This document shows, piece by piece, positions 5,471 to 18,172 of a stretch of 20,091 nt of DNA (positions within the stretch are counted from its first letter, which is position 1; every line of letters starts with the position of its first letter). Under the pieces are notes generated by a model. That model did not search any database. It saw nothing but the letters and a program-made list of their open reading frames with translations, and was not told where the DNA came from. The stretch is from a virus (taxonomy: Duplodnaviria > Heunggongvirae > Uroviricota > Caudoviricetes). Location: positions 1-20,091 of the IMG/VR virus record IMGVR_UViG_2693429524_000017; one strand, given 5' to 3'. Both the position numbers and the translations under genes were made by a program.

Positions 5471-5488
5471 CCTATCGGAGCATTAAGC

Positions 5489-6742
5489 ATGGCTAACCAA
5501 TTAGCAAAAGACCTTGAAATCATGTTCGAAAACTACGTTGAAGGCTTTGAGGCCGCCTGCGTAGTTTCCCGTAACGCTAAAAAATTCCGTCCCGGTGATA
5601 CAGCAATGCAGCGAGCAGGTGATGTTCTGTATCGTCCGCAGCATTACCACATGAACATTGAGGAAGGCCTAGACCTCAGCGGCAAAACGCCAACAGCACT
5701 GGTTCAGCGCCTTGTTCCTTCTGTGTTCAAGGAGCCGAAAAACATTCTGTACACTCTGGATGCGCGTGAAATGCGTGACCCGGAACATAAAACTGAAGCT
5801 GGTCGCGCCGCAGGTATGCGCCTTGCTGCACAGATTGACTCTGACCTGATTTCCATGGTTACGCAGCGTGCTACTAACGTGATCACGATGGCTGACTCAA
5901 CCACAGGTTCACAGGGCCGTGATTTGTGGAACTGTGCGGCAGGTATTGATGCCACCATGACGGCGATTGGTGTACCTCAGGGTATCAACCGTCGCTCTTT
6001 CTGGAACCCCTTCAACTACAAAGACCTTGCTGGCGAGCTTAGTCACCGTGCCTATGCTCAGGGCGCAACCCTGACAGCATACGAAAAAGCGCAAATCCCT
6101 CCGGTTGCGTCCTTCGATAGCTACAAGACCGATATTTCTGGTCGTGTTCCGAAGGGTACAGCAACTTCCATTACGCTGGCAGCAGCACCTGCGCACAAGG
6201 TTGAAGCGAAAGATGCTAACGATATGCCAGTGGATAACCGACAGGGGACCATTACGGTATCTGCTGAAGGTTTGCAGGTTGGCGATGCGTTTACCATCGC
6301 AGGGGTGAATTCTGTACACCAGATCACCAAAGATACCACCGGGCAGCCGCAGGTATTCCGCGTTCTGGCAGTAAGCGGAACGACAGTAACTATCTCCCCG
6401 AAAATTCTGCCGCCTGACAACGCGGATGTCGCCAGCCGACCATATGCAAACGTTGATGCTAACGCGGCAAATGGTGCAGCAATTACCATTCTCAACAAAA
6501 ATGCCGCACCGGCTAACCTATTCTGGGCTGATGGTTCTGTTGAGCTGATGTACGGCAAACTGGCGTTCCCGACTGGTCAGGGTCCACAGGTAATGACAGC
6601 AACCACCGAGCAGGGCGCTACGCTGATCATGTCTTACGCCTTCGACCACATCAAAGGCGTAACCACTGCTCGTTTCACCACTCTGTATGGTTGCTCTGTA
6701 CTTGTTCCTGAATATACGGGCATCGTTATTGCCGGGCAGTAA
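5489..6742 (+). CDS. Major capsid (coat) protein (P22 gp5-like), 417 aa
   Basis: Position directly after scaffold, length, GGAG RBS, and a strong intrinsic terminator immediately downstream as expected for a highly expressed coat gene. Divergent from P22 gp5 itself. Confidence 0.85.
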   Translation: MANQLAKDLEIMFENYVEGFEAACVVSRNAKKFRPGDTAMQRAGDVLYRPQHYHMNIEEGLDLSGKTPTALVQRLVPSVFKEPKNILYTLDAREMRDPEHKTEAGRAAGMRLAAQIDSDLISMVTQRATNVITMADSTTGSQGRDLWNCAAGIDATMTAIGVPQGINRRSFWNPFNYKDLAGELSHRAYAQGATLTAYEKAQIPPVASFDSYKTDISGRVPKGTATSITLAAAPAHKVEAKDANDMPVDNRQGTITVSAEGLQVGDAFTIAGVNSVHQITKDTTGQPQVFRVLAVSGTTVTISPKILPPDNADVASRPYANVDANAANGAAITILNKNAAPANLFWADGSVELMYGKLAFPTGQGPQVMTATTEQGATLIMSYAFDHIKGVTTARFTTLYGCSVLVPEYTGIVIAGQ

Positions 6743-10846: not shown

Positions 10847-12253
10847 ATGGCTACTTGGCAAGGAACAAACGGCGGATTGTTGGCTGGTATCGGCGGCGTC
10901 AACTCAAACGCTCCGAGCGTAAATGACATCGGCAATACGCTTCAGCTTATCAGGCAGAACAATGATATTGAGCGTTCAGGCGCTAACAATGTTGGGCTGA
11001 CTGCTTTGCAAGGCCTTTCAGGTATTGCGGGGGTGTTTCAGCAGGAAAAGCAGGCTCAGCGGCAGAAAGAATTTCAGCAGGCATACGCTAATGCTTATGC
11101 GTCTGGTGATCGCGGTGCTTTGCGTCAGTTGGCTACTCAATATCCAGACCAGATTGAATCCGTTCGTAAAGGCATGGGATTCATTGATGAAGACCAGCGT
11201 AATTCTATCGGCACATTAGCGGCTGGCGCACGCCTTGCGTCATCGTCTCCAGAAGCAATGCAATCATGGCTGCAAAACAACGCCAAGGAACTGACTCGCG
11301 TCGGTGTTGACCCTAACAGCGTTGCTCAGATGTATCAGCAAAACCCTTCAGGATTTGGTGAGTTTGTTGATCACCTTGGGATGGCTGCTCTCGGTCCGAT
11401 TGATTACTTCAATGTTCAGGACAAGATGGCTGGTCGTGAAATTGACCGAGGCAGGCTGGCAGAGACAATCCGCAGCAATCAGGCTGGTGAAGCACTTCAG
11501 GCGAGAGGGCAAAACCTTTCCTATCAGTCAGCAATGACTGGGCACAATATCGCAGCACAACGCTTGGCTCTGGATCAGCAAGAGTTCGGGTTTAAGATGC
11601 AGCAAGCGCAGGAAAAGGCTCAGCAGTTGATTAGTGAAGCACCTAAGCTGTCAGTAAACATGGAAAAAGCCATCGAGACGGCTGTAAACAATGCCACAGC
11701 ATCATCAAACTCAGCCAATTCTATGAGTGCGCTTGCTCAACAGTTCAGAGCAGAAAAACCAACGACAGGTTTGTTCGGTAACGCACAGAACATGTTCGCA
11801 AAACTTACCGGAAGCGATACGACATTGCGTGATTTGCGCATTCGCCAAAATGCCCTTGTTAACAGTCAGGTTCTTAAATTCCTACCTCCCGGCCCCGCAA
11901 CGGATAAAGACGTTGAGATCGTTCGTCAGGGTGCACCAACTGACATGGATAACCCTGAGACGGTCGCAAGATGGCTTGATGCTATGGCAAACCTTGAGCG
12001 ACGAAACGCGCAGTTTAATGAGTTTAAAGCCGAGTGGATGAGCGCGAATGGCAACCCTGGACAATCGCGTAATGGCGGTCAGATATTGGGGTTGGATGTT
12101 AAAAAAGGTGAATCATTGGGGAGTGCCGTTAAGCGGTATATGTCAATGAATACTGACGCAGCGCCAGCACAAGATTCGACACCTTCAGGTGAACCACGGA
12201 ATCAGGTTGGATCATATACCTCAAAATCAGGCATTCAATTTACGGTGGAATGA
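10847..12253 (+). CDS. Ejection protein gp20-like, 468 aa
   Basis: Position and size match P22 gp20 (recalled as ~471 aa); AAGGGG RBS. Confidence 0.8.
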   Translation: MATWQGTNGGLLAGIGGVNSNAPSVNDIGNTLQLIRQNNDIERSGANNVGLTALQGLSGIAGVFQQEKQAQRQKEFQQAYANAYASGDRGALRQLATQYPDQIESVRKGMGFIDEDQRNSIGTLAAGARLASSSPEAMQSWLQNNAKELTRVGVDPNSVAQMYQQNPSGFGEFVDHLGMAALGPIDYFNVQDKMAGREIDRGRLAETIRSNQAGEALQARGQNLSYQSAMTGHNIAAQRLALDQQEFGFKMQQAQEKAQQLISEAPKLSVNMEKAIETAVNNATASSNSANSMSALAQQFRAEKPTTGLFGNAQNMFAKLTGSDTTLRDLRIRQNALVNSQVLKFLPPGPATDKDVEIVRQGAPTDMDNPETVARWLDAMANLERRNAQFNEFKAEWMSANGNPGQSRNGGQILGLDVKKGESLGSAVKRYMSMNTDAAPAQDSTPSGEPRNQVGSYTSKSGIQFTVE

Positions 12254-14130
12254 TGAAAGTAACTGCAAACGGTAAGACATTTACCTTCCCTGATGGTACG
12301 AGCACGGAAGATATTGGCACCGCCATTGATGAGTATTTTGCTGGTCAGGCTGTTCAGCAACAAACAGTTAATCAGGCCAATAATGCACCAACACGGGAAG
12401 AACCATCATTAATGCAACAAGCTGGCGATTGGCTCACTGGTGGTCAAAGTGCAGGGCAAATTGCAGAACAGGCTGGTCGTGGTCTGGTAAACATACCATT
12501 CGACGTATTACAGGGCGGCGCAAGCCTGATTAATGCAATCAGCCAGGGGCTTGGTGGCCCCAAGGTTTTGGATGATGTTTATCGTCCAGTCGATCGACCG
12601 ACAGACCCTTACGCGCAAGCTGGTGAAACAATTGGTGGGTATCTCCTGCCAATTGGCACAGCGGCAAAAGCTGCTGGAGCGCCAGCAAAGCTCGCTGGAG
12701 ATATCGGTTCCGCAGGAAACATGATTGCAGGTTCTCTTGCTGATGCTGCAAATCAGGAGGGCGATTTCGCACAAAATGCAGCTAAAAATGCCGGAGTTAA
12801 CCTTGCCGCTCAGGGGGTTCTTTCCGCAGCAGCAAAGGGAATAGGGCGTGGAATTACTGCTGTTCGTGGCGAAATATCACCAGCAGATCAGCAATTGCTC
12901 AAGCGTGCCGCTGCGGCAGATGTACCAGTTATGACATCGGATGTAGTTTCTCCAAAAACAAAACTTGGCAATCAACTGCAGGGTTACTCAGAAGGAGTCA
13001 TAGCTGGTACTGGACCAATGAGAGCCGCACAGCAGGATGCCAGAACCAAGCTTGTTAATCGCTTCACCGAAAAATACGGCGACTACGATCCATCTGTAGT
13101 CGTTGATAGTCTAAAGTCAGGCGTTGCAAGGGAAAAATCGTTAGCCAAGTCAAAACTAAACAGCCTGTCAGGAAGAATGGTTGGAAAGCCAGTTGATACA
13201 AGTGGCGCCATAAGAGCTATCGACGGAGCAGTAAACGAACTTGGGAAACTTAAAGGTGTTTCTGACACCCAGACCATTTCTGCGCTTAATGATTATAAGA
13301 ATGCCATTCAGGAGATAACAAATGGAGATGATGCCTTTGAGTTACTTGATAAGCTGAGAACTCAGTTCCGCATTGACGTAAAAGGCGATCGTACAGTTCT
13401 GCCATCAATGTCGCAAACAATGGTCGACAGGGTCTATAACTCGCTAACCAATAGCCTTAGTAAATCTATAGCGAAAGGACTTAGCCCAAAAGATGCTTCA
13501 GCATGGAGAGCGGGAAAAGCTGATTATGCAAAAATGGCAACACATGCAACTCAAACGCGCCTTAAAAACGTTCTAAACAAAGGAGATTTAACTCCCGAGG
13601 CTGTAAATACCATTGTGTATGGACAATATGGGTCAGATATAGCTCGATTGTACGGGAAACTCGATCAAAAAGGTAAAGACATGCTAAGGGCGGCATATAT
13701 CAGCAAAATAGCTGACAAGGTAGGTGACAGCCCTCAGAAAATGATGACCGAGCTTGGCAAGCTGCAAAAACAAGCAAATGGTCAGGTGTTTAAAACTGTA
13801 TTTGGTGGGAAGAACGGAAAAGAGATAGAGGGGATGTTATCTATTCTCGATGCTACCAAAAGAGCATCTGAGGCTAATGTTGTGACGAAGACTGGCATGA
13901 CACTCGCGCCTTTGGTAAGGGTTATTGGTAACCTAAAAACCGGAGGCGCGCTATTGGCTGGGGAAACAGGGATTGGCCTTATGTCGAGGGTTTATGAAAG
14001 CCCTATGACCAGGAATGCGCTCTTACGTCTGGCAAACACCAAAGCAGGAACGCCAGCCTATGAAAGAGCATTAAGTAACGCTGCAAATGCCATCAGACCG
14101 CTGCTTGCCACTGAGGCAACACAGCAGTAA
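12250..14130 (+). CDS. Ejection protein gp16-like, 626 aa
   Basis: Start overlaps the gp20 stop (ATGATG); last gene of the conserved ejection-protein block; Ala/Gly-rich. Confidence 0.8.
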   Translation: MMKVTANGKTFTFPDGTSTEDIGTAIDEYFAGQAVQQQTVNQANNAPTREEPSLMQQAGDWLTGGQSAGQIAEQAGRGLVNIPFDVLQGGASLINAISQGLGGPKVLDDVYRPVDRPTDPYAQAGETIGGYLLPIGTAAKAAGAPAKLAGDIGSAGNMIAGSLADAANQEGDFAQNAAKNAGVNLAAQGVLSAAAKGIGRGITAVRGEISPADQQLLKRAAAADVPVMTSDVVSPKTKLGNQLQGYSEGVIAGTGPMRAAQQDARTKLVNRFTEKYGDYDPSVVVDSLKSGVAREKSLAKSKLNSLSGRMVGKPVDTSGAIRAIDGAVNELGKLKGVSDTQTISALNDYKNAIQEITNGDDAFELLDKLRTQFRIDVKGDRTVLPSMSQTMVDRVYNSLTNSLSKSIAKGLSPKDASAWRAGKADYAKMATHATQTRLKNVLNKGDLTPEAVNTIVYGQYGSDIARLYGKLDQKGKDMLRAAYISKIADKVGDSPQKMMTELGKLQKQANGQVFKTVFGGKNGKEIEGMLSILDATKRASEANVVTKTGMTLAPLVRVIGNLKTGGALLAGETGIGLMSRVYESPMTRNALLRLANTKAGTPAYERALSNAANAIRPLLATEATQQ

Positions 14131-14154: not shown

Positions 14155-14544
14155 CTAACATTTTCTTTTTACTTTCCCAACAAAAGCTTTGGTTGAATCC
14201 ATATTTCCATAACCGGAAATGGTTTTTGACATTAAAACTGTTCCAGTAGGATGTATTACCCATGAGTCGATAACGCGTTGAGTTTCGCCATTTGCGCCGA
14301 TTCCTATGATGGAGTTTTTAGACAATGCTTTGTAAGCCATGCCGCCCGCATCTGTCCCAGAATATGTGATGCTGGCATCTTCACCGCTTGTCTTAATGAT
14401 GAATGTTCCACTAAAACCATCTTCTTCCGGATGGAAATTATTTCGTTCTGAATAGCTTATTCCGCGCATATCTCCAACGACCCAGCACTCTGCTGTAGCC
14501 CCAAAAGATATGAATAAGAACATAGCAGCAAGAAATTGCTTCAC
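14155..14544 (-). CDS. Exported hypothetical protein with an N-terminal signal peptide, 129 aa (accessory gene)
   Basis: GTG start with a perfect AGGAGG 5 nt upstream (reverse complement of 14550-14555). N-terminus MKQFLAAMFLFISFGATA-E is a signal peptide with an AXA-type cleavage site and no lipobox. Opposite strand to the late operon and AT-rich. Confidence 0.65.
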   Translation of the reverse strand: MKQFLAAMFLFISFGATAECWVVGDMRGISYSERNNFHPEEDGFSGTFIIKTSGEDASITYSGTDAGGMAYKALSKNSIIGIGANGETQRVIDSWVIHPTGTVLMSKTISGYGNMDSTKAFVGKVKRKC

Positions 14545-14848
14545 ACCAACCTCCTTAGTTTTGCGCAGGATACCAGATGATACTTTATTGGTGGAGTGGT
14601 GTGTGAAAACGTGTCAACGACAAACCATCCACAACTTGGACGAATGATTTAGCAAAAAGTGCTATTTTTGGTGTTTGGTGTCATAGAAACGTGAATAGCT
14701 TACTTTTCAACATTGCATGAAACTTGCAGGAAATGTGACATTACCTTATAGGTAACTTCGGTGAAAATGCAGTAAATGTGAAACGTAATGGTTTAAACAT
14801 GTCGCTAAAGTGGTTGTAAGTTAGCCTCCGAAGGATTGCTGATAGCTT

Positions 14849-14857: not shown

Positions 14858-14918
14858 ATTAAATGACATTTGACATAGTTGGATACTTAGCTGCGGCTAT
14901 CAAGATGGAGGTATGTTT

Positions 14919-15362
14919 ATGCTCACTTGTTTTGATGTCGCCGACTACTTCTTGGCGCATTGCGATGAAGAAAGTGGCGACATTATCTCTAACCTAAAAA
15001 TTCAGAAGTTGACGTATTATGCCCAAGGGTTTTCTCTGGTTCTTCTGGGTAAGCCGCTATTTAATGAGAAAATTGAAGCCTGGATGCATGGGCCAGTAGT
15101 TCCTGAATTGTATCGTAAATATAGGGACTGTGGTAACGGCGCTTTACCTGCGCCAGAAAACTTTGACGCTAAAAAATTCAGTGAAGATGAAATTGAATTG
15201 CTGGATGAGGTGTATAAAGTTTATGGTCAGTTTTCTGCCTGGAAACTGCGCAATATGACTCACGAAGAGCAGCCATGGAAAGATGCTTACATTGAGGGTG
15301 CGGTTAGCCAAGAAATCACGCTTGATTCTATGAAAGGTTTTTTCAAAACGTTAATTAACTGA
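14919..15362 (+). CDS. Panacea (DUF4065, COG3600 GepA/SocA-like) domain protein; putative antitoxin or immunity component, about 147 aa
   Basis: Translation contains NLKIQKLTYYAQGFSLVLLGKPLFNEKIEAWMHGPVVPELYRKY, which I recognise as the Panacea core pattern. GGAGG at 14907-14911 favours the ATG at 14919 over the track start at 14913. Stop is 5 nt before the next ORF. Confidence 0.6.
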   Translation: MLTCFDVADYFLAHCDEESGDIISNLKIQKLTYYAQGFSLVLLGKPLFNEKIEAWMHGPVVPELYRKYRDCGNGALPAPENFDAKKFSEDEIELLDEVYKVYGQFSAWKLRNMTHEEQPWKDAYIEGAVSQEITLDSMKGFFKTLIN

Positions 15363-15367
15363 CGTGT

Positions 15368-15790
15368 ATGTCTAGAGTTAAGGGAAGAATAAAACAGAGG
15401 GATAAAGAGAGCTCTGCTACTGTTGGCCTCTCTATCCATCACGAATCTCATGATGTAGACAAAAGTCCGCCTGTATTTTCTCTTAGATACCTACAAAAGG
15501 GGTATTGCCTAGATTGCTGCCAAAAGCATGAAAAGGCAGCATTTGCAGATAGGCTGTTCAGGTTAAGTCAGATGTCATGGGATGAGATACGAAAATCTGA
15601 TAAACACGGGCTTGGGACGGAAAAAATTGCCAGAAACGCGATAAAGGCTCCGATTCCTAAGCATGTTACTCAAGATGTGGATTTCATTGCGTTCAGATTT
15701 TGCTCTAAGGCACCTATGGTTGGTTATAAGATAGGAGCCACTTTTTATGTCTTATGGCTCGACAGGGAGTTCAAGCTATACAAGCACTAA
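15368..15790 (+). CDS. Hypothetical basic protein, 140 aa; candidate toxin/effector partner of the upstream Panacea-domain protein
   Basis: ATG 5 nt after the upstream stop with no independent Shine-Dalgarno, so probably translationally coupled. K/R/H-rich, with a C-terminal segment VDFIAFRFCSKAPMVGYKIGATFYVLWLDREFKLYKH. I cannot assign a family. Followed directly by an intrinsic terminator. Confidence 0.55.
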   Translation: MSRVKGRIKQRDKESSATVGLSIHHESHDVDKSPPVFSLRYLQKGYCLDCCQKHEKAAFADRLFRLSQMSWDEIRKSDKHGLGTEKIARNAIKAPIPKHVTQDVDFIAFRFCSKAPMVGYKIGATFYVLWLDREFKLYKH

Positions 15791-16364: not shown

Positions 16365-16548
16365 GGTGGGATGCTAGGTCTCTATCGTTAAAATCAAGGC
16401 TGCTAATCATTTCATTGTAAATGGCGTTTTTATCTTCCATTGGCAGTCTTGAGTAAACCAGGCACAGAGCATATTTCAGGGAGTTTAGCTCCTTCTCTAG
16501 CTCTTCCTTGCTTGACGTTGTTGACTTAATAAACTGTTTTTTGTTCAT
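16339..16548 (-). CDS. Small hypothetical protein co-transcribed downstream of mnt, 69 aa
   Basis: ATG overlaps the mnt stop (ATGA on the minus strand), so probably translationally coupled to mnt. No family recognised. Confidence 0.5.
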   Translation of the reverse strand: MNKKQFIKSTTSSKEELEKELNSLKYALCLVYSRLPMEDKNAIYNEMISSLDFNDRDLASHLNSFRVPE

Positions 16549-16796
16549 TTTTCATCCTTACCATACATGGTCTTTAGCGCCTCAACATCGTGTTCAAGAT
16601 CTATCAATCGTGATGCTATAGTTGCAAGGTCTAGTGCTTGAATGTGTTTATTTTTTTCGGTCCACGCTTCAAGTGCCGCGACCATCTCAGCATTTAATGA
16701 ACGAGAATTAGCCTCAGCCAGTTCAATAAGACGTTCCTTTATCTCTACAGGAAGCCTCAGATTCACTTGAGGGTTTTTGTACTTACGATCAGACAT
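16545..16796 (-). CDS. mnt: Mnt-like ribbon-helix-helix repressor, 83 aa
   Basis: N-terminal RHH motif NLRLPVEIKERLIELAEANSRSLNAEMVAAL aligns with my recollection of P22 Mnt; same length; transcribed divergently from arc/ant as in P22 immI. Confidence 0.8.
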   Translation of the reverse strand: MSDRKYKNPQVNLRLPVEIKERLIELAEANSRSLNAEMVAALEAWTEKNKHIQALDLATIASRLIDLEHDVEALKTMYGKDEK

Positions 16797-16901: not shown

Positions 16902-17042
16902 ATGAAGGTAAAAACACTGCGTATGCCAGAGAAGCTAGAAAAAATTCTTGAAGAAAAAGCAAAGGAAGAGTGTCGCTCATTCAGCGCAGAAGTAATTAAA
17001 CGGGTGATGGACAGCCTGAAGAGAGAGGGGATAACTGTATGA
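16902..17042 (+). CDS. arc: Arc-like ribbon-helix-helix repressor, 46 aa (absent from the ORF track because it is under 60 aa)
   Basis: ATG at 16902 with GGAGGA upstream. Translation MKVKTLRMPEKLEKILEEKAKEECRSFSAEVIKRVMDSLKREGITV aligns with P22 Arc as I recall it, notably RSFSAEVIKRVMDSLKREG against RSVNSEIYQRVMESFKKEG. Confidence 0.8.
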   Translation: MKVKTLRMPEKLEKILEEKAKEECRSFSAEVIKRVMDSLKREGITV

Positions 17043-17242
17043 GTAAAGAATGTTGTTTCTGCGGCATTAGCGAATCAGACGCTGATCAAACATACATTTA
17101 CTCTAAAGAAACAGGTCGGATGCTGTGTAGTGACTGCGTGTTGGACATCATAAGATACAAGCATCTTGGATGTTCTGCCAGCATTAGCAATATAGGTGAA
17201 GTATATGAAGGGAAAGATATAACTGATAGAGCAGAAAGTTGA
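17039..17242 (+). CDS. Small Cys-rich (zinc-ribbon-like) hypothetical protein, 67 aa, translationally coupled to arc
   Basis: ATG overlaps the arc TGA (ATGA). Cys cluster CCFCG...CSDC...C. Sits between arc and ant, where I recall P22 having only an intercistronic region. Confidence 0.55.
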   Translation: MSKECCFCGISESDADQTYIYSKETGRMLCSDCVLDIIRYKHLGCSASISNIGEVYEGKDITDRAES

Positions 17243-17340
17243 AGCCCCAACTGCTGGAACAGTCAGGGCTTCGGTATCGTAAAACCACACATAGGAATTA
17301 ACGACATGAAAAGTATAGCAACAGCAGTATCTACTATCAA
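17236..17340 (-). ncRNA. sar: Candidate sar-like antisense RNA locus: minus-strand promoter inside the ant 5' end, transcript running antisense across the ant RBS to a hairpin at 17241-17272
   Basis: Minus-strand -35 TTGATA (reverse complement of 17335-17340), 17-bp spacer, -10 TATACT (reverse complement of 17312-17317), placing the start near the ant ATG. An extended hairpin GAAGCCC..ACTG-CTGGAA-CAGT..GGGCTTC lies at 17241-17272. The predicted length of about 65-70 nt is similar to the P22 sar RNA as I recall it. The span includes the promoter. Confidence 0.45.
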
Positions 17341-18172
17341 TGTACCATTCCACGGCGCAGAGCTTTATGTTGTCAATCACAACGGCGAACCGTATACCCC
17401 AATGAAACCTATCGTTGAAGGCATGGGTATGGATTGGGCTTCACAGTTTACGAAAATGAAGCAGCGGTTTAAAACCTCCATTGTGAAAATCACAATGCAG
17501 CTTCCTGGTGATGAACAACGCCGTGAGATTATTTGTTTGGCACTTCGCAAACTTGCAGGTTGGCTGCAAACCATTAGCCCTAACAAAGTCCGCCCTGAAA
17601 TCCGCGACAAGGTAATCCAGTATCAGGAAGAGTGTGACGATGTGCTCTACGAATACTGGACTAAAGGTCATGTAGTTAACCCACGCAAAGCTAAAAAGGC
17701 GTTGCCGGGTAAAATTACCACTGAACAGCAGGAAGCCATTAAACAACTCGTCATGAGTCGCGGTCAGTCTCTGCCAAAAGAAAAACAGGCGAAGGCGATG
17801 ATCACCATGTGGTCGTCACTGAAATCTCATTTTGGGTGTTCATACAAAGAAATCAGCGATGAGCAGTTTACCGAAGCTCTGTCACTTGCAGCTCGTATTC
17901 CACTTGAAGGCGAGTTCATTGGCAAGTCGAAACATAATGAGATGAGTTGTTTTGATTGGAGGATGAATGTTCATAACCTGAACTCGGCGTGCATTCATCT
18001 TGATGCCATGTACAGAATATGGAGAGACGAAATGGAACCCGCTTTGCGATTGCTTGGCTCTCCGGTTGCGACCAGATTTTGCGGAAGAATTGCAGATTGC
18101 TATTCCGTAACTGCAAGCGTTAAGAAAAGTCTGGAGAATGCCGCAGGGCTGAAAGGCTTACAACCATTTTAA
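17306..18172 (+). CDS. ant: Antirepressor Ant (P22 Ant-like), 288 aa
   Basis: N-terminal segment YTPMKPIVEGMGMDWASQFTKMKQRF...ICLALRKLAGWL...YQEECDDVLYEYWTKG is typical of phage antirepressor N-domains; located after arc as in P22 immI. Confidence 0.8.
   Translation: MKSIATAVSTINVPFHGAELYVVNHNGEPYTPMKPIVEGMGMDWASQFTKMKQRFKTSIVKITMQLPGDEQRREIICLALRKLAGWLQTISPNKVRPEIRDKVIQYQEECDDVLYEYWTKGHVVNPRKAKKALPGKITTEQQEAIKQLVMSRGQSLPKEKQAKAMITMWSSLKSHFGCSYKEISDEQFTEALSLAARIPLEGEFIGKSKHNEMSCFDWRMNVHNLNSACIHLDAMYRIWRDEMEPALRLLGSPVATRFCGRIADCYSVTASVKKSLENAAGLKGLQPF

Follow-up and report, generated by a model that had tools for sequence, protein, structure and literature searches.

What is the function of a small gene that is encoded against the late operon of a P22-like phage? 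The question is raised by an open reading frame (ORF) of 129 codons in a DNA stretch of 20,091 nucleotides (IMG/VR virus record IMGVR_UViG_2693429524_000017, positions 1 to 20,091), the whole of which is referred to here as the window. This DNA comes from a P22-like (Lederbergvirus-type) phage or prophage, of which it is the late region, and the ORF lies between genes 16 and 9. To judge from its sequence, the product is a distant member of the family of Hex of phage 434, which is the same as the product of gene 38 of phage Sf6. We tentatively suggest that it acts in the periplasm of lysogens and excludes superinfecting phages.

The ORF (14155..14544, minus strand; Table 1) is a real gene under purifying selection. 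In comparisons with three other alleles, the ratio of nonsynonymous to synonymous changes (pN/pS) was 0.09 (against Salmonella phage Emek), 0.30 and 0.19; for the mature part of the protein it was 0.14-0.15 in two diverged alleles. The start codon is aligned across three diverged alleles (GTG/GTG/ATG), each of which is preceded by a purine run resembling a Shine-Dalgarno sequence, and this fixes the form of 129 amino acids (aa). RefSeq/PGAP calls a shorter form of 122 aa beginning at Met8, a start that is probably wrong and with which the n-region of the signal peptide would be lost. A first reading of the window from its letters alone (the original prediction) had named an AGGAGG ribosome binding site and a position antisense to the late operon, directly after gp16. 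Both were confirmed: the motif is present as AAGGAGG 5 nucleotides (nt) before the GTG, and the ORF and gp16 are convergent, with 24 nt between their stops. The heptamer alone is not significant, as it occurs once in the window against about two copies expected by chance.

No match for the 129-aa protein was found in Pfam, NCBIfam or PADLOC, and the original prediction had recognised no family. This was wrong: the protein belongs to family phrog_2651 of PHROGs ('unknown function', E 9e-61), which 434 Hex matches too (E 1.4e-58), and it is related to 434 Hex and Sf6 gene 38. A relaxed tblastn search against phage genomes gave full-length matches of 29 % identity in 434, lambda imm434, Sf6 (gene 38), HK446, HK633, Sf101 and others. 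When the profile of the window subfamily was compared with the 434 protein by hhalign, residues 1-129 aligned with residues 1-133 at a probability of 99.45 % (E 4.9e-22). Like 434 Hex, the window protein has a signal peptide ending in small-x-small/E-C-W (the slash marks the predicted cut) and a C-terminal FVGxVxGxC; the two are of the same size, and their genes take up non-essential positions in temperate phages that are lambdoid or P22-like. The 434 product, MIRIAALLSILLTTSANS/ECW...FVGDVVGTCNQ, keeps the family plan. The two differ in sequence, with an identity of only 27-29 %, and in locus, as the window gene follows gp16 in antisense whereas hex follows cI on the PRM transcript. The 434 and Sf6 genes begin at the cI stop codon, between cI and PL; the window gene is not directly downstream of cI, a locus trait that belongs to the 434 subfamily and not to the whole family.

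The gene itself is already in the databases. Close copies are found in Salmonella phages Emek and ST-35, and the Emek annotation already records the similarity to Sf6 gene 38. It is present in 147 of 5426 complete E. coli genomes (146 at >=80 % coverage, about 3 %), and its label is hypothetical everywhere, while phrog_2651 is listed as unknown and the 434 records annotate Hex as a 'repressor protection protein'. Within the Hex family of prophage accessory proteins, a poorly understood group, it belongs to a distinct subfamily with a fixed, different locus.

A word-indexed protein search yielded 22 relatives, and an exhaustive profile search 127 clusters at 50 % identity. About 120 of these are small proteins like the window protein, including some truncated copies; the remaining handful are long repeat proteins and apparently chance matches. 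Full-length members share a common plan of a signal peptide, a cysteine as second mature residue followed by W, Y or F, and a C-terminal FVGxVxGxC, and conservation extends down to about 20 % identity. The window protein has both the x-C-[WYF] after the signal peptide and the C-terminal VGxxxGxC. The few members with source names all come from Gammaproteobacteria (Escherichia, Salmonella, Silvania, Rahnella, Plesiomonas, Vibrio and Moritella). When all 108 aligned relatives were searched against Pfam, only two single-member chance matches were obtained, and no PDB sequence was matched below E 0.3 by a profile search. A common E. coli variant of the window type (cluster P0012, 642 member sequences) has a different sequence beyond about residue 112, without the terminal cysteine; it is likely a rearranged or decaying copy.

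Where does the protein act? Its N-terminus, MKQFLAAMFLFISFGATA/ECW, has the parts of a Sec-type signal, with K2 in the n-region, a hydrophobic core (9-mer Kyte-Doolittle mean 2.9), and alanines at -3 and -1 of the predicted signal peptidase I site. The call is based on n-region, h-region and -3/-1 features as measured on the 108 relatives. The n-region contains K or R in 106 of them, and the best 9-mer has a median hydrophobicity of 2.8. The -1 residue is alanine in 82/108 and A, S, G or T in 100/108, and about 95 have a small or aliphatic residue at -3. The original prediction had spoken of a clear signal peptide without a lipobox; the first statement is borne out by this pattern, which is kept over the family, and the second by the glutamate immediately before the cysteine. 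With the sequence T-A-E-C, a lipoprotein of the Cor, Llp or Ltp type (lipobox [LVI][ASTVI][GAS]C) was ruled out, and the residue preceding the cysteine is E, D, Q, N or K in 70/108 members. The mature chain was computed to have 111 aa, a mass of 11.9 kDa and an isoelectric point of 7.0, and no transmembrane segment was found in it (best hydrophobic 19-mer, Kyte-Doolittle mean 0.77). From these features, the Hex-like protein is most likely exported by the Sec pathway, processed by signal peptidase and located in the periplasm.

The cysteines follow the same line. The sole invariant residues in the alignment of 108 sequences are Cys20 and Cys129. Between this terminal pair there are no cysteines in 47 sequences, two in 60 and four in one, and never an odd number, as expected for a disulfide-bonded extracytoplasmic protein. 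Catalytic-looking conserved residues were not found in the family.

Structure prediction, one of the checks proposed with the original prediction, delivered a confident model, but no significant match by fold. AlphaFold2, run with the 108-sequence alignment, returned a mean predicted local distance difference test score (pLDDT) of 93.4 and a predicted template modelling score (pTM) of 0.81. In the model, an N-terminal helix, which corresponds to the signal peptide, is followed by nine strands (18-32, 39-44, 48-53, 56-61, 69-75, 78-85, 89-97, 102-110 and 117-128) that form a small up-and-down barrel. A disulfide between Cys20 and Cys129 would probably close this barrel by joining the second and the last mature residues. 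With antiparallel, end-to-end pairing of strands 18-32 and 117-128 (32 with 117), Cys20 would lie opposite Cys129; the apposition comes from DSSP strand ranges and is not a measured distance. Foldseek searches of PDB and BFVD gave nothing at E <= 1e-3. The protein is probably a soluble barrel, not a membrane barrel. An outer-membrane barrel of the OmpX/Ail/Lom, OmpW or NspA kind was ruled out: in contrast to these, the mature protein has only 111 aa and is too short, several of its strands have 6 residues instead of about 10 or more, its cysteines are conserved, it ends in GxC without a C-terminal aromatic signal, and none of the family models matches.

The position of the gene is as constant as its sequence plan. 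In 80 of 80 IMG/VR loci, the window-type gene is antisense to gp16 and adjoins it, and wherever the contig reaches that far the tailspike gene is found on the other side. The coding ends of the two convergent genes lie within about 25-30 bp of each other in 73 of the 76 loci compared. A member of 26 % identity occupies the same slot in a much diverged P22-like prophage, in which the gp16 analogue has no Pfam match, and one of 21 % identity, from Rahnella, has a Head_binding tailspike remnant as its neighbour. In 79 of 79 IMG/VR loci, the gene of the 434 type directly adjoins cI; it is present in 207 of the 5426 complete E. coli genomes. Because one P22-like prophage of 41,039 bp (IMGVR_UViG_648276644_000012; loci L077 and L167) holds both paralogs, the window-type gene and hex are probably not redundant. 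For pattern-based locus finding, the alignment of the full family proved too diverse; a scan of genome contigs returned one locus. Distant members with four cysteines (from Moritella, an NCBI assembly and a metagenome contig) lie in variable islands and have no informative partner gene.

Some relatives of the window gene belong to operons headed by a repressor gene. An allele of 87 % identity is the third and last gene of an mnt-rap1a-hexL operon with intergenic gaps of -4 and 15 bp, an arrangement seen in 13 of the 80 IMG/VR loci. In P22 lysogens, the antirepressor stays off through repression by Mnt. Relatives behind mnt are thus placed for expression in lysogens, like hex behind cI. Another allele (L017) comes after an Arc-like gene and a lipoprotein gene and before a further gene for an exported protein. 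The two flanking products in L017 are a 161-aa lipoprotein (5482-5967; lipobox LLAG/C, phrog_6067) and a 99-aa exported helical protein (6401-6700; phrog_19844), which makes this a run of three envelope-targeted morons. In three other loci (L068, L074 and L081), a gene with HTH_3 and Peptidase_S24 domains (cI/LexA-like) precedes the Hex-like gene on the same strand, at a distance of about 130-310 bp. This arrangement inside the gp16-tailspike region echoes 434 cI-hex at a different locus.

We consider the window protein to be, with somewhat less than even confidence, a periplasmic envelope protection protein that is expressed in lysogens and excludes superinfecting phages (heterologous exclusion). 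The gene is a moron at the gp16/tailspike junction of P22-like prophages, and the prophage probably expresses it as long as the antisense late operon stays silent. Its product, a small beta-barrel of 111 aa, would act in the cell envelope as a binding protein, a role suggested by the lack of conserved catalytic-looking residues, and would stop superinfecting phages at a periplasmic step of their infection. For P22-like phages this step might be that in which the gp7/gp20/gp16 ejection conduit assembles or functions, or a wall-degrading activity borne by the virion. The proposed block would parallel the exclusion of P22 that has been attributed to 434 hex. P22 is excluded by Salmonella(lambda imm434) lysogens but not by hex- lysogens, according to the introduction of PMC3564112, which cites Susskind and Botstein 1980. 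The original prediction had guessed at lysogenic conversion or superinfection exclusion. Of this guess, exclusion is placed first here because of the reported phenotype of this one studied homolog and because of the slot shared with sieA; the relatives in repressor-headed operons (cI434-hex, mnt-rap1a-hexL) are also in its favour. No convincing promoter was found in the window, and the sole biochemistry on a homolog proposes a cytoplasmic function.

T4 Sp (spackle) is a small, signal-peptide-bearing periplasmic protein that blocks a periplasmic infection step of related phage. It and other small periplasmic exclusion proteins offer a functional analogy, with no sequence or fold relation to the window protein detected. 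P22 SieA is the comparison by position: sieA fills the gene 16-gene 9 slot in 22 of 66 sequenced P22-like phages (Leavitt et al. 2024, PMC10883804), and the window gene, in the same slot, likely serves the same purpose of blocking the entry of related phages. The two proteins are not homologous; SieA is a polytopic inner-membrane protein with the motif FxRYPxEAxxFNK (PMC10883804). With no transmembrane helices and no FxRYPxEAxxFNK in the window protein, an identity with SieA was ruled out, and neither the gene list nor a PHROGs search showed a sieA-like gene in the window.

Several points weigh against an exclusion function. The identity to Hex is just 27-29 %, so that the specificity may differ. 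The exclusion phenotype of 434 hex comes second-hand, through the introduction of PMC3564112, and the activity reported there for a Hex fragment is cytoplasmic. The fold searches gave no functional analogue. The location counts as weak evidence for function, since toxin-antitoxin genes are found in this moron hot spot as well, and the recurrent linkage to Rap1a-family genes points to a different kind of envelope protection. The remaining points concern transcription. The window gene is probably expressed in lysogens, to judge from the arrangement of its relatives. It is monocistronic and shares a spacer of 368 bp with a divergent Panacea gene, so its upstream neighbour is not a repressor gene. 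In a promoter scan, no sigma-70 promoter was found on the minus strand between 14545 and 14912. A hexamer that resembles a -10 element lies 33 nt before the start codon, with a weak -35 (CACACA) at 17 nt, and a perfect TTGACA at 14617-14612 is without a -10 element at 16-18 nt. In most related loci, similarity to the upstream sequence of the window stops 25-45 nt before the start codon, which makes expression dependent on variable context. No convincing terminator was found between the convergent gene ends (z -1.6), and Rfam gave nothing near the Hex-like gene.

The published view of Hex has to be weighed against an extracytoplasmic function. The hex DNA printed in Shkilnyj, Colon and Koudelka 2013 (PMC3564112) is our matching ORF plus 24 N-terminal codons that overlap cI. 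This published ORF of 158 aa (phage 434, L011 2875-3351) starts 72 nt inside cI; the family alignment favours a form of 134 aa, the ATG of which overlaps the cI stop (ATGA), and databases also hold a form of 103 aa from an internal Met (P0144). In that study, hex was found on the PRM transcript by reverse transcription PCR, replacement of hex raised spontaneous induction 30-fold in recA+ but not in recA- hosts, and a plasmid-borne fragment, sHex, restored about 7-fold (PMC3564112). In vitro, the RecA-stimulated cleavage of 434 and P22 repressors is inhibited by purified sHex, of 6 kDa, while that of lambda cI or LexA is not (PMC3564112). Signal peptide, membrane and periplasm are never mentioned in the paper, and export is not considered (PMC3564112). 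By our count, sHex, a stable fragment, begins with Glu43 of the 158-aa ORF, equivalent to Glu19 in the 134-aa form; the DNA of sHex starts with GAATGCTGG (E-C-W), and this start coincides exactly with the predicted signal-peptidase site ANS/ECW. The fragment ends at Asn79 of the 134-aa form and thus comprises residues 19-79, about half of the predicted barrel. Secretory precursors are commonly lethal to the cell when made in excess. Full-length Hex, too, had a lethal effect on overexpression (PMC3564112). Because sHex is a half-barrel that starts at the predicted cut, and because of the family-wide export signals and the cysteine pattern, a native cytoplasmic role for Hex seems doubtful and hard to reconcile with its predicted features.

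Could the window protein nevertheless protect a repressor, binding 434 cI or P22 C2, blocking its RecA-stimulated autocleavage and lowering the number of spontaneous inductions? The induction data and the inhibition of cleavage by sHex (PMC3564112) argue for it, the window phage is P22-like, and three IMG/VR loci have the same-strand gene with helix-turn-helix and Peptidase_S24 domains upstream of the window-type gene. Against this, the cleavable signal peptide, the even cysteine numbers and the invariant terminal cysteines suggest that the native protein is extracytoplasmic, a possibility that PMC3564112 leaves aside. sHex (residues 19-79) was expressed without a signal peptide and went through a guanidine step in purification. 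In the hex mutant, a cat cassette takes the place of the gene directly downstream of cI, and a cis effect on cI expression is conceivable. In many relatives, moreover, the upstream repressor is of the Mnt/Arc type and is not cleaved through RecA. We therefore regard repressor protection as improbable, and we give it less credence than the two functions that follow.

The less unlikely of these is that of an orphan periplasmic immunity protein, which would protect the lysogen from competitors and not from phages, by neutralising a periplasm-acting antibacterial toxin such as a peptidoglycan hydrolase of a type VI secretion system (T6SS), a bacteriocin or a lysozyme-like enzyme. The recurrent Rap1a-family partner in related prophages speaks for this. 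Like the Rap1a immunity proteins and the PliC/MliC lysozyme inhibitors, the window protein is small, exported, disulfide-containing and without enzyme motifs; PliC-type inhibitors are likewise 8-stranded barrels, and a Rap1a-family gene is co-operonic with a Hex-like gene in related prophages. Yet no effector, VgrG, PAAR, Rhs or bacteriocin gene adjoins any member examined, known immunity or inhibitor Pfam families are matched by 0/108 members, and a match to PhiA was outscored by generic barrels. PF18602 (Rap1a) matches the neighbour gene in the related loci, and neither the window protein nor the 108 relatives. For the periplasmic lysozyme inhibitors (PliC/MliC, Ivy, PliG), there was no family-model or specific structural match. 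The phenotype reported for the homolog, as far as the introduction of PMC3564112 describes it, is phage exclusion. A little less probable again is another form of lysogenic conversion, in which a calycin-like barrel binds a small hydrophobic ligand or an envelope component and alters envelope physiology, stress tolerance or host interaction, with neither phages nor toxins as its target. The fold is as close to FABP/CRABP, lipocalin, avidin and nitrobindin as to anything, and members are also known from variable islands, away from the late regions of prophages, in Moritella and other Gammaproteobacteria. That the ORF is decaying or silent, and functionless in the window phage, we consider very improbable. 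It would agree with the failure to detect an upstream promoter in the window and with the frequent E. coli variant P0012, with its different C-terminus and no terminal cysteine, but pN/pS is 0.09-0.30, the gene is intact at >=80 % coverage in 146/5426 complete E. coli genomes and on 80 IMG/VR contigs, and the family is conserved down to about 20 % identity.

The exclusion of superinfecting phages may also be extended to the family as a whole, although we hold this wider version to be rather doubtful. The Hex family would then be a widespread and unrecognised group of soluble periplasmic beta-barrels that block a periplasmic stage of infection, with paralogs that differ in their targets and of which a prophage sometimes carries two. 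For P22-like phages the target would be the gp7/gp20/gp16 ejection conduit. The anti-RecA mechanism published for 434 Hex would be an artefact that might have come from the use of a signal-less half-barrel fragment and of a cassette-replacement mutant. Hex is not mentioned in a 2024 review of superinfection exclusion.

Whichever function applies, an anonymous moron is now tied to a named, classical phage gene, hex, and to a family of about 120 clusters at 50 % identity that has neither a Pfam model nor a solved structure. The sequence evidence would place this family outside the cytoplasm, and this is hard to square with the only published mechanism for Hex. If it is true that DNA delivery of the P22 type is blocked in the periplasm, this would complement SieA, which acts from the inner membrane, and the window protein would be a soluble probe for the ejection-protein conduit. 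The orphan T6SS immunity genes that prophages carry in the mnt operon may be of separate interest. In related P22-like prophages, such a Rap1a-family gene (T6SS immunity, PF18602) lies between mnt and the Hex-like gene, and the same Rap1a/Hex-like pair (67 % and 47 % identity) is found in an island of Silvania confinis, where it adjoins an integrase gene and a Zorya-like pair of EH_Signature and SNF2 helicase genes (loci L013 5399-6390, also L014-L016, and L003 5646-6387).

Table 1. Coordinates of the Hex-like gene, its parts and the neighbouring features in the window.
Feature	Position	Strand	Remarks
gp20-like gene	10847-12253		
gp16-type DNA-ejection protein gene	12250..14130	+	phrog_770 'DNA transfer protein', E 7e-248; convergent with the 14155..14544 ORF
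Hex-like precursor coding sequence, 129 aa	14155..14544	-	GTG start; TAG stop included
Mature domain, 111 aa	14158..14490	-	predicted 8-9-stranded meander beta-barrel
Cys129 codon, last residue	14158..14160	-	invariant 108/108; predicted disulfide partner of Cys20
Cys20 codon, second mature residue	14485..14487	-	invariant 108/108
Signal peptide MKQFLAAMFLFISFGATA, codons 1-18	14491..14544	-	predicted signal peptidase I cut A18/E19
Shine-Dalgarno sequence AAGGAGG	14550..14556	-	5 nt upstream of GTG
-10-like hexamer TATCAT, unverified promoter candidate	14577..14582	-	33 nt upstream of start; weak -35 CACACA at 17 nt
Panacea/SocA-like antitoxin-domain gene, immI-like region	14913-15362	+	149 aa; PF13274, E 2e-24
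140-aa partner of the Panacea gene	15368-15790	+	phrog_8366
Mnt-like Arc-family gene, immI-like region	16545-16796	-	
Arc-like gene, immI-like region	16902-17042		
sar antisense RNA (P22 immI region)	17237-17304	-	Rfam RF00262, 80.9 bits, E 2e-16
Antirepressor gene, immI-like region	17306-18172		
ORF	18295 to window end		same place in related loci: tailspike gene with Head_binding domain

Upstream of the Hex-like gene, the window contains a region like immI of P22, in which the sar RNA sits between the Arc-like and the antirepressor genes. In many of the IMG/VR loci (e.g. L028 4605-5009, minus strand), the immI genes are absent and the divergent upstream gene encodes a protein of about 130 aa with an HExxH motif (HECAH). 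Inside the immI region of the window, the two-gene module 14913-15790 is probably a toxin-antitoxin pair of the PanA type or a defence pair. The 140-aa partner of its Panacea gene shows weak similarity to the C-terminus of PADLOC NsnC (E 2e-7) and, below the cutoff, to NCBIfam MAG6450.

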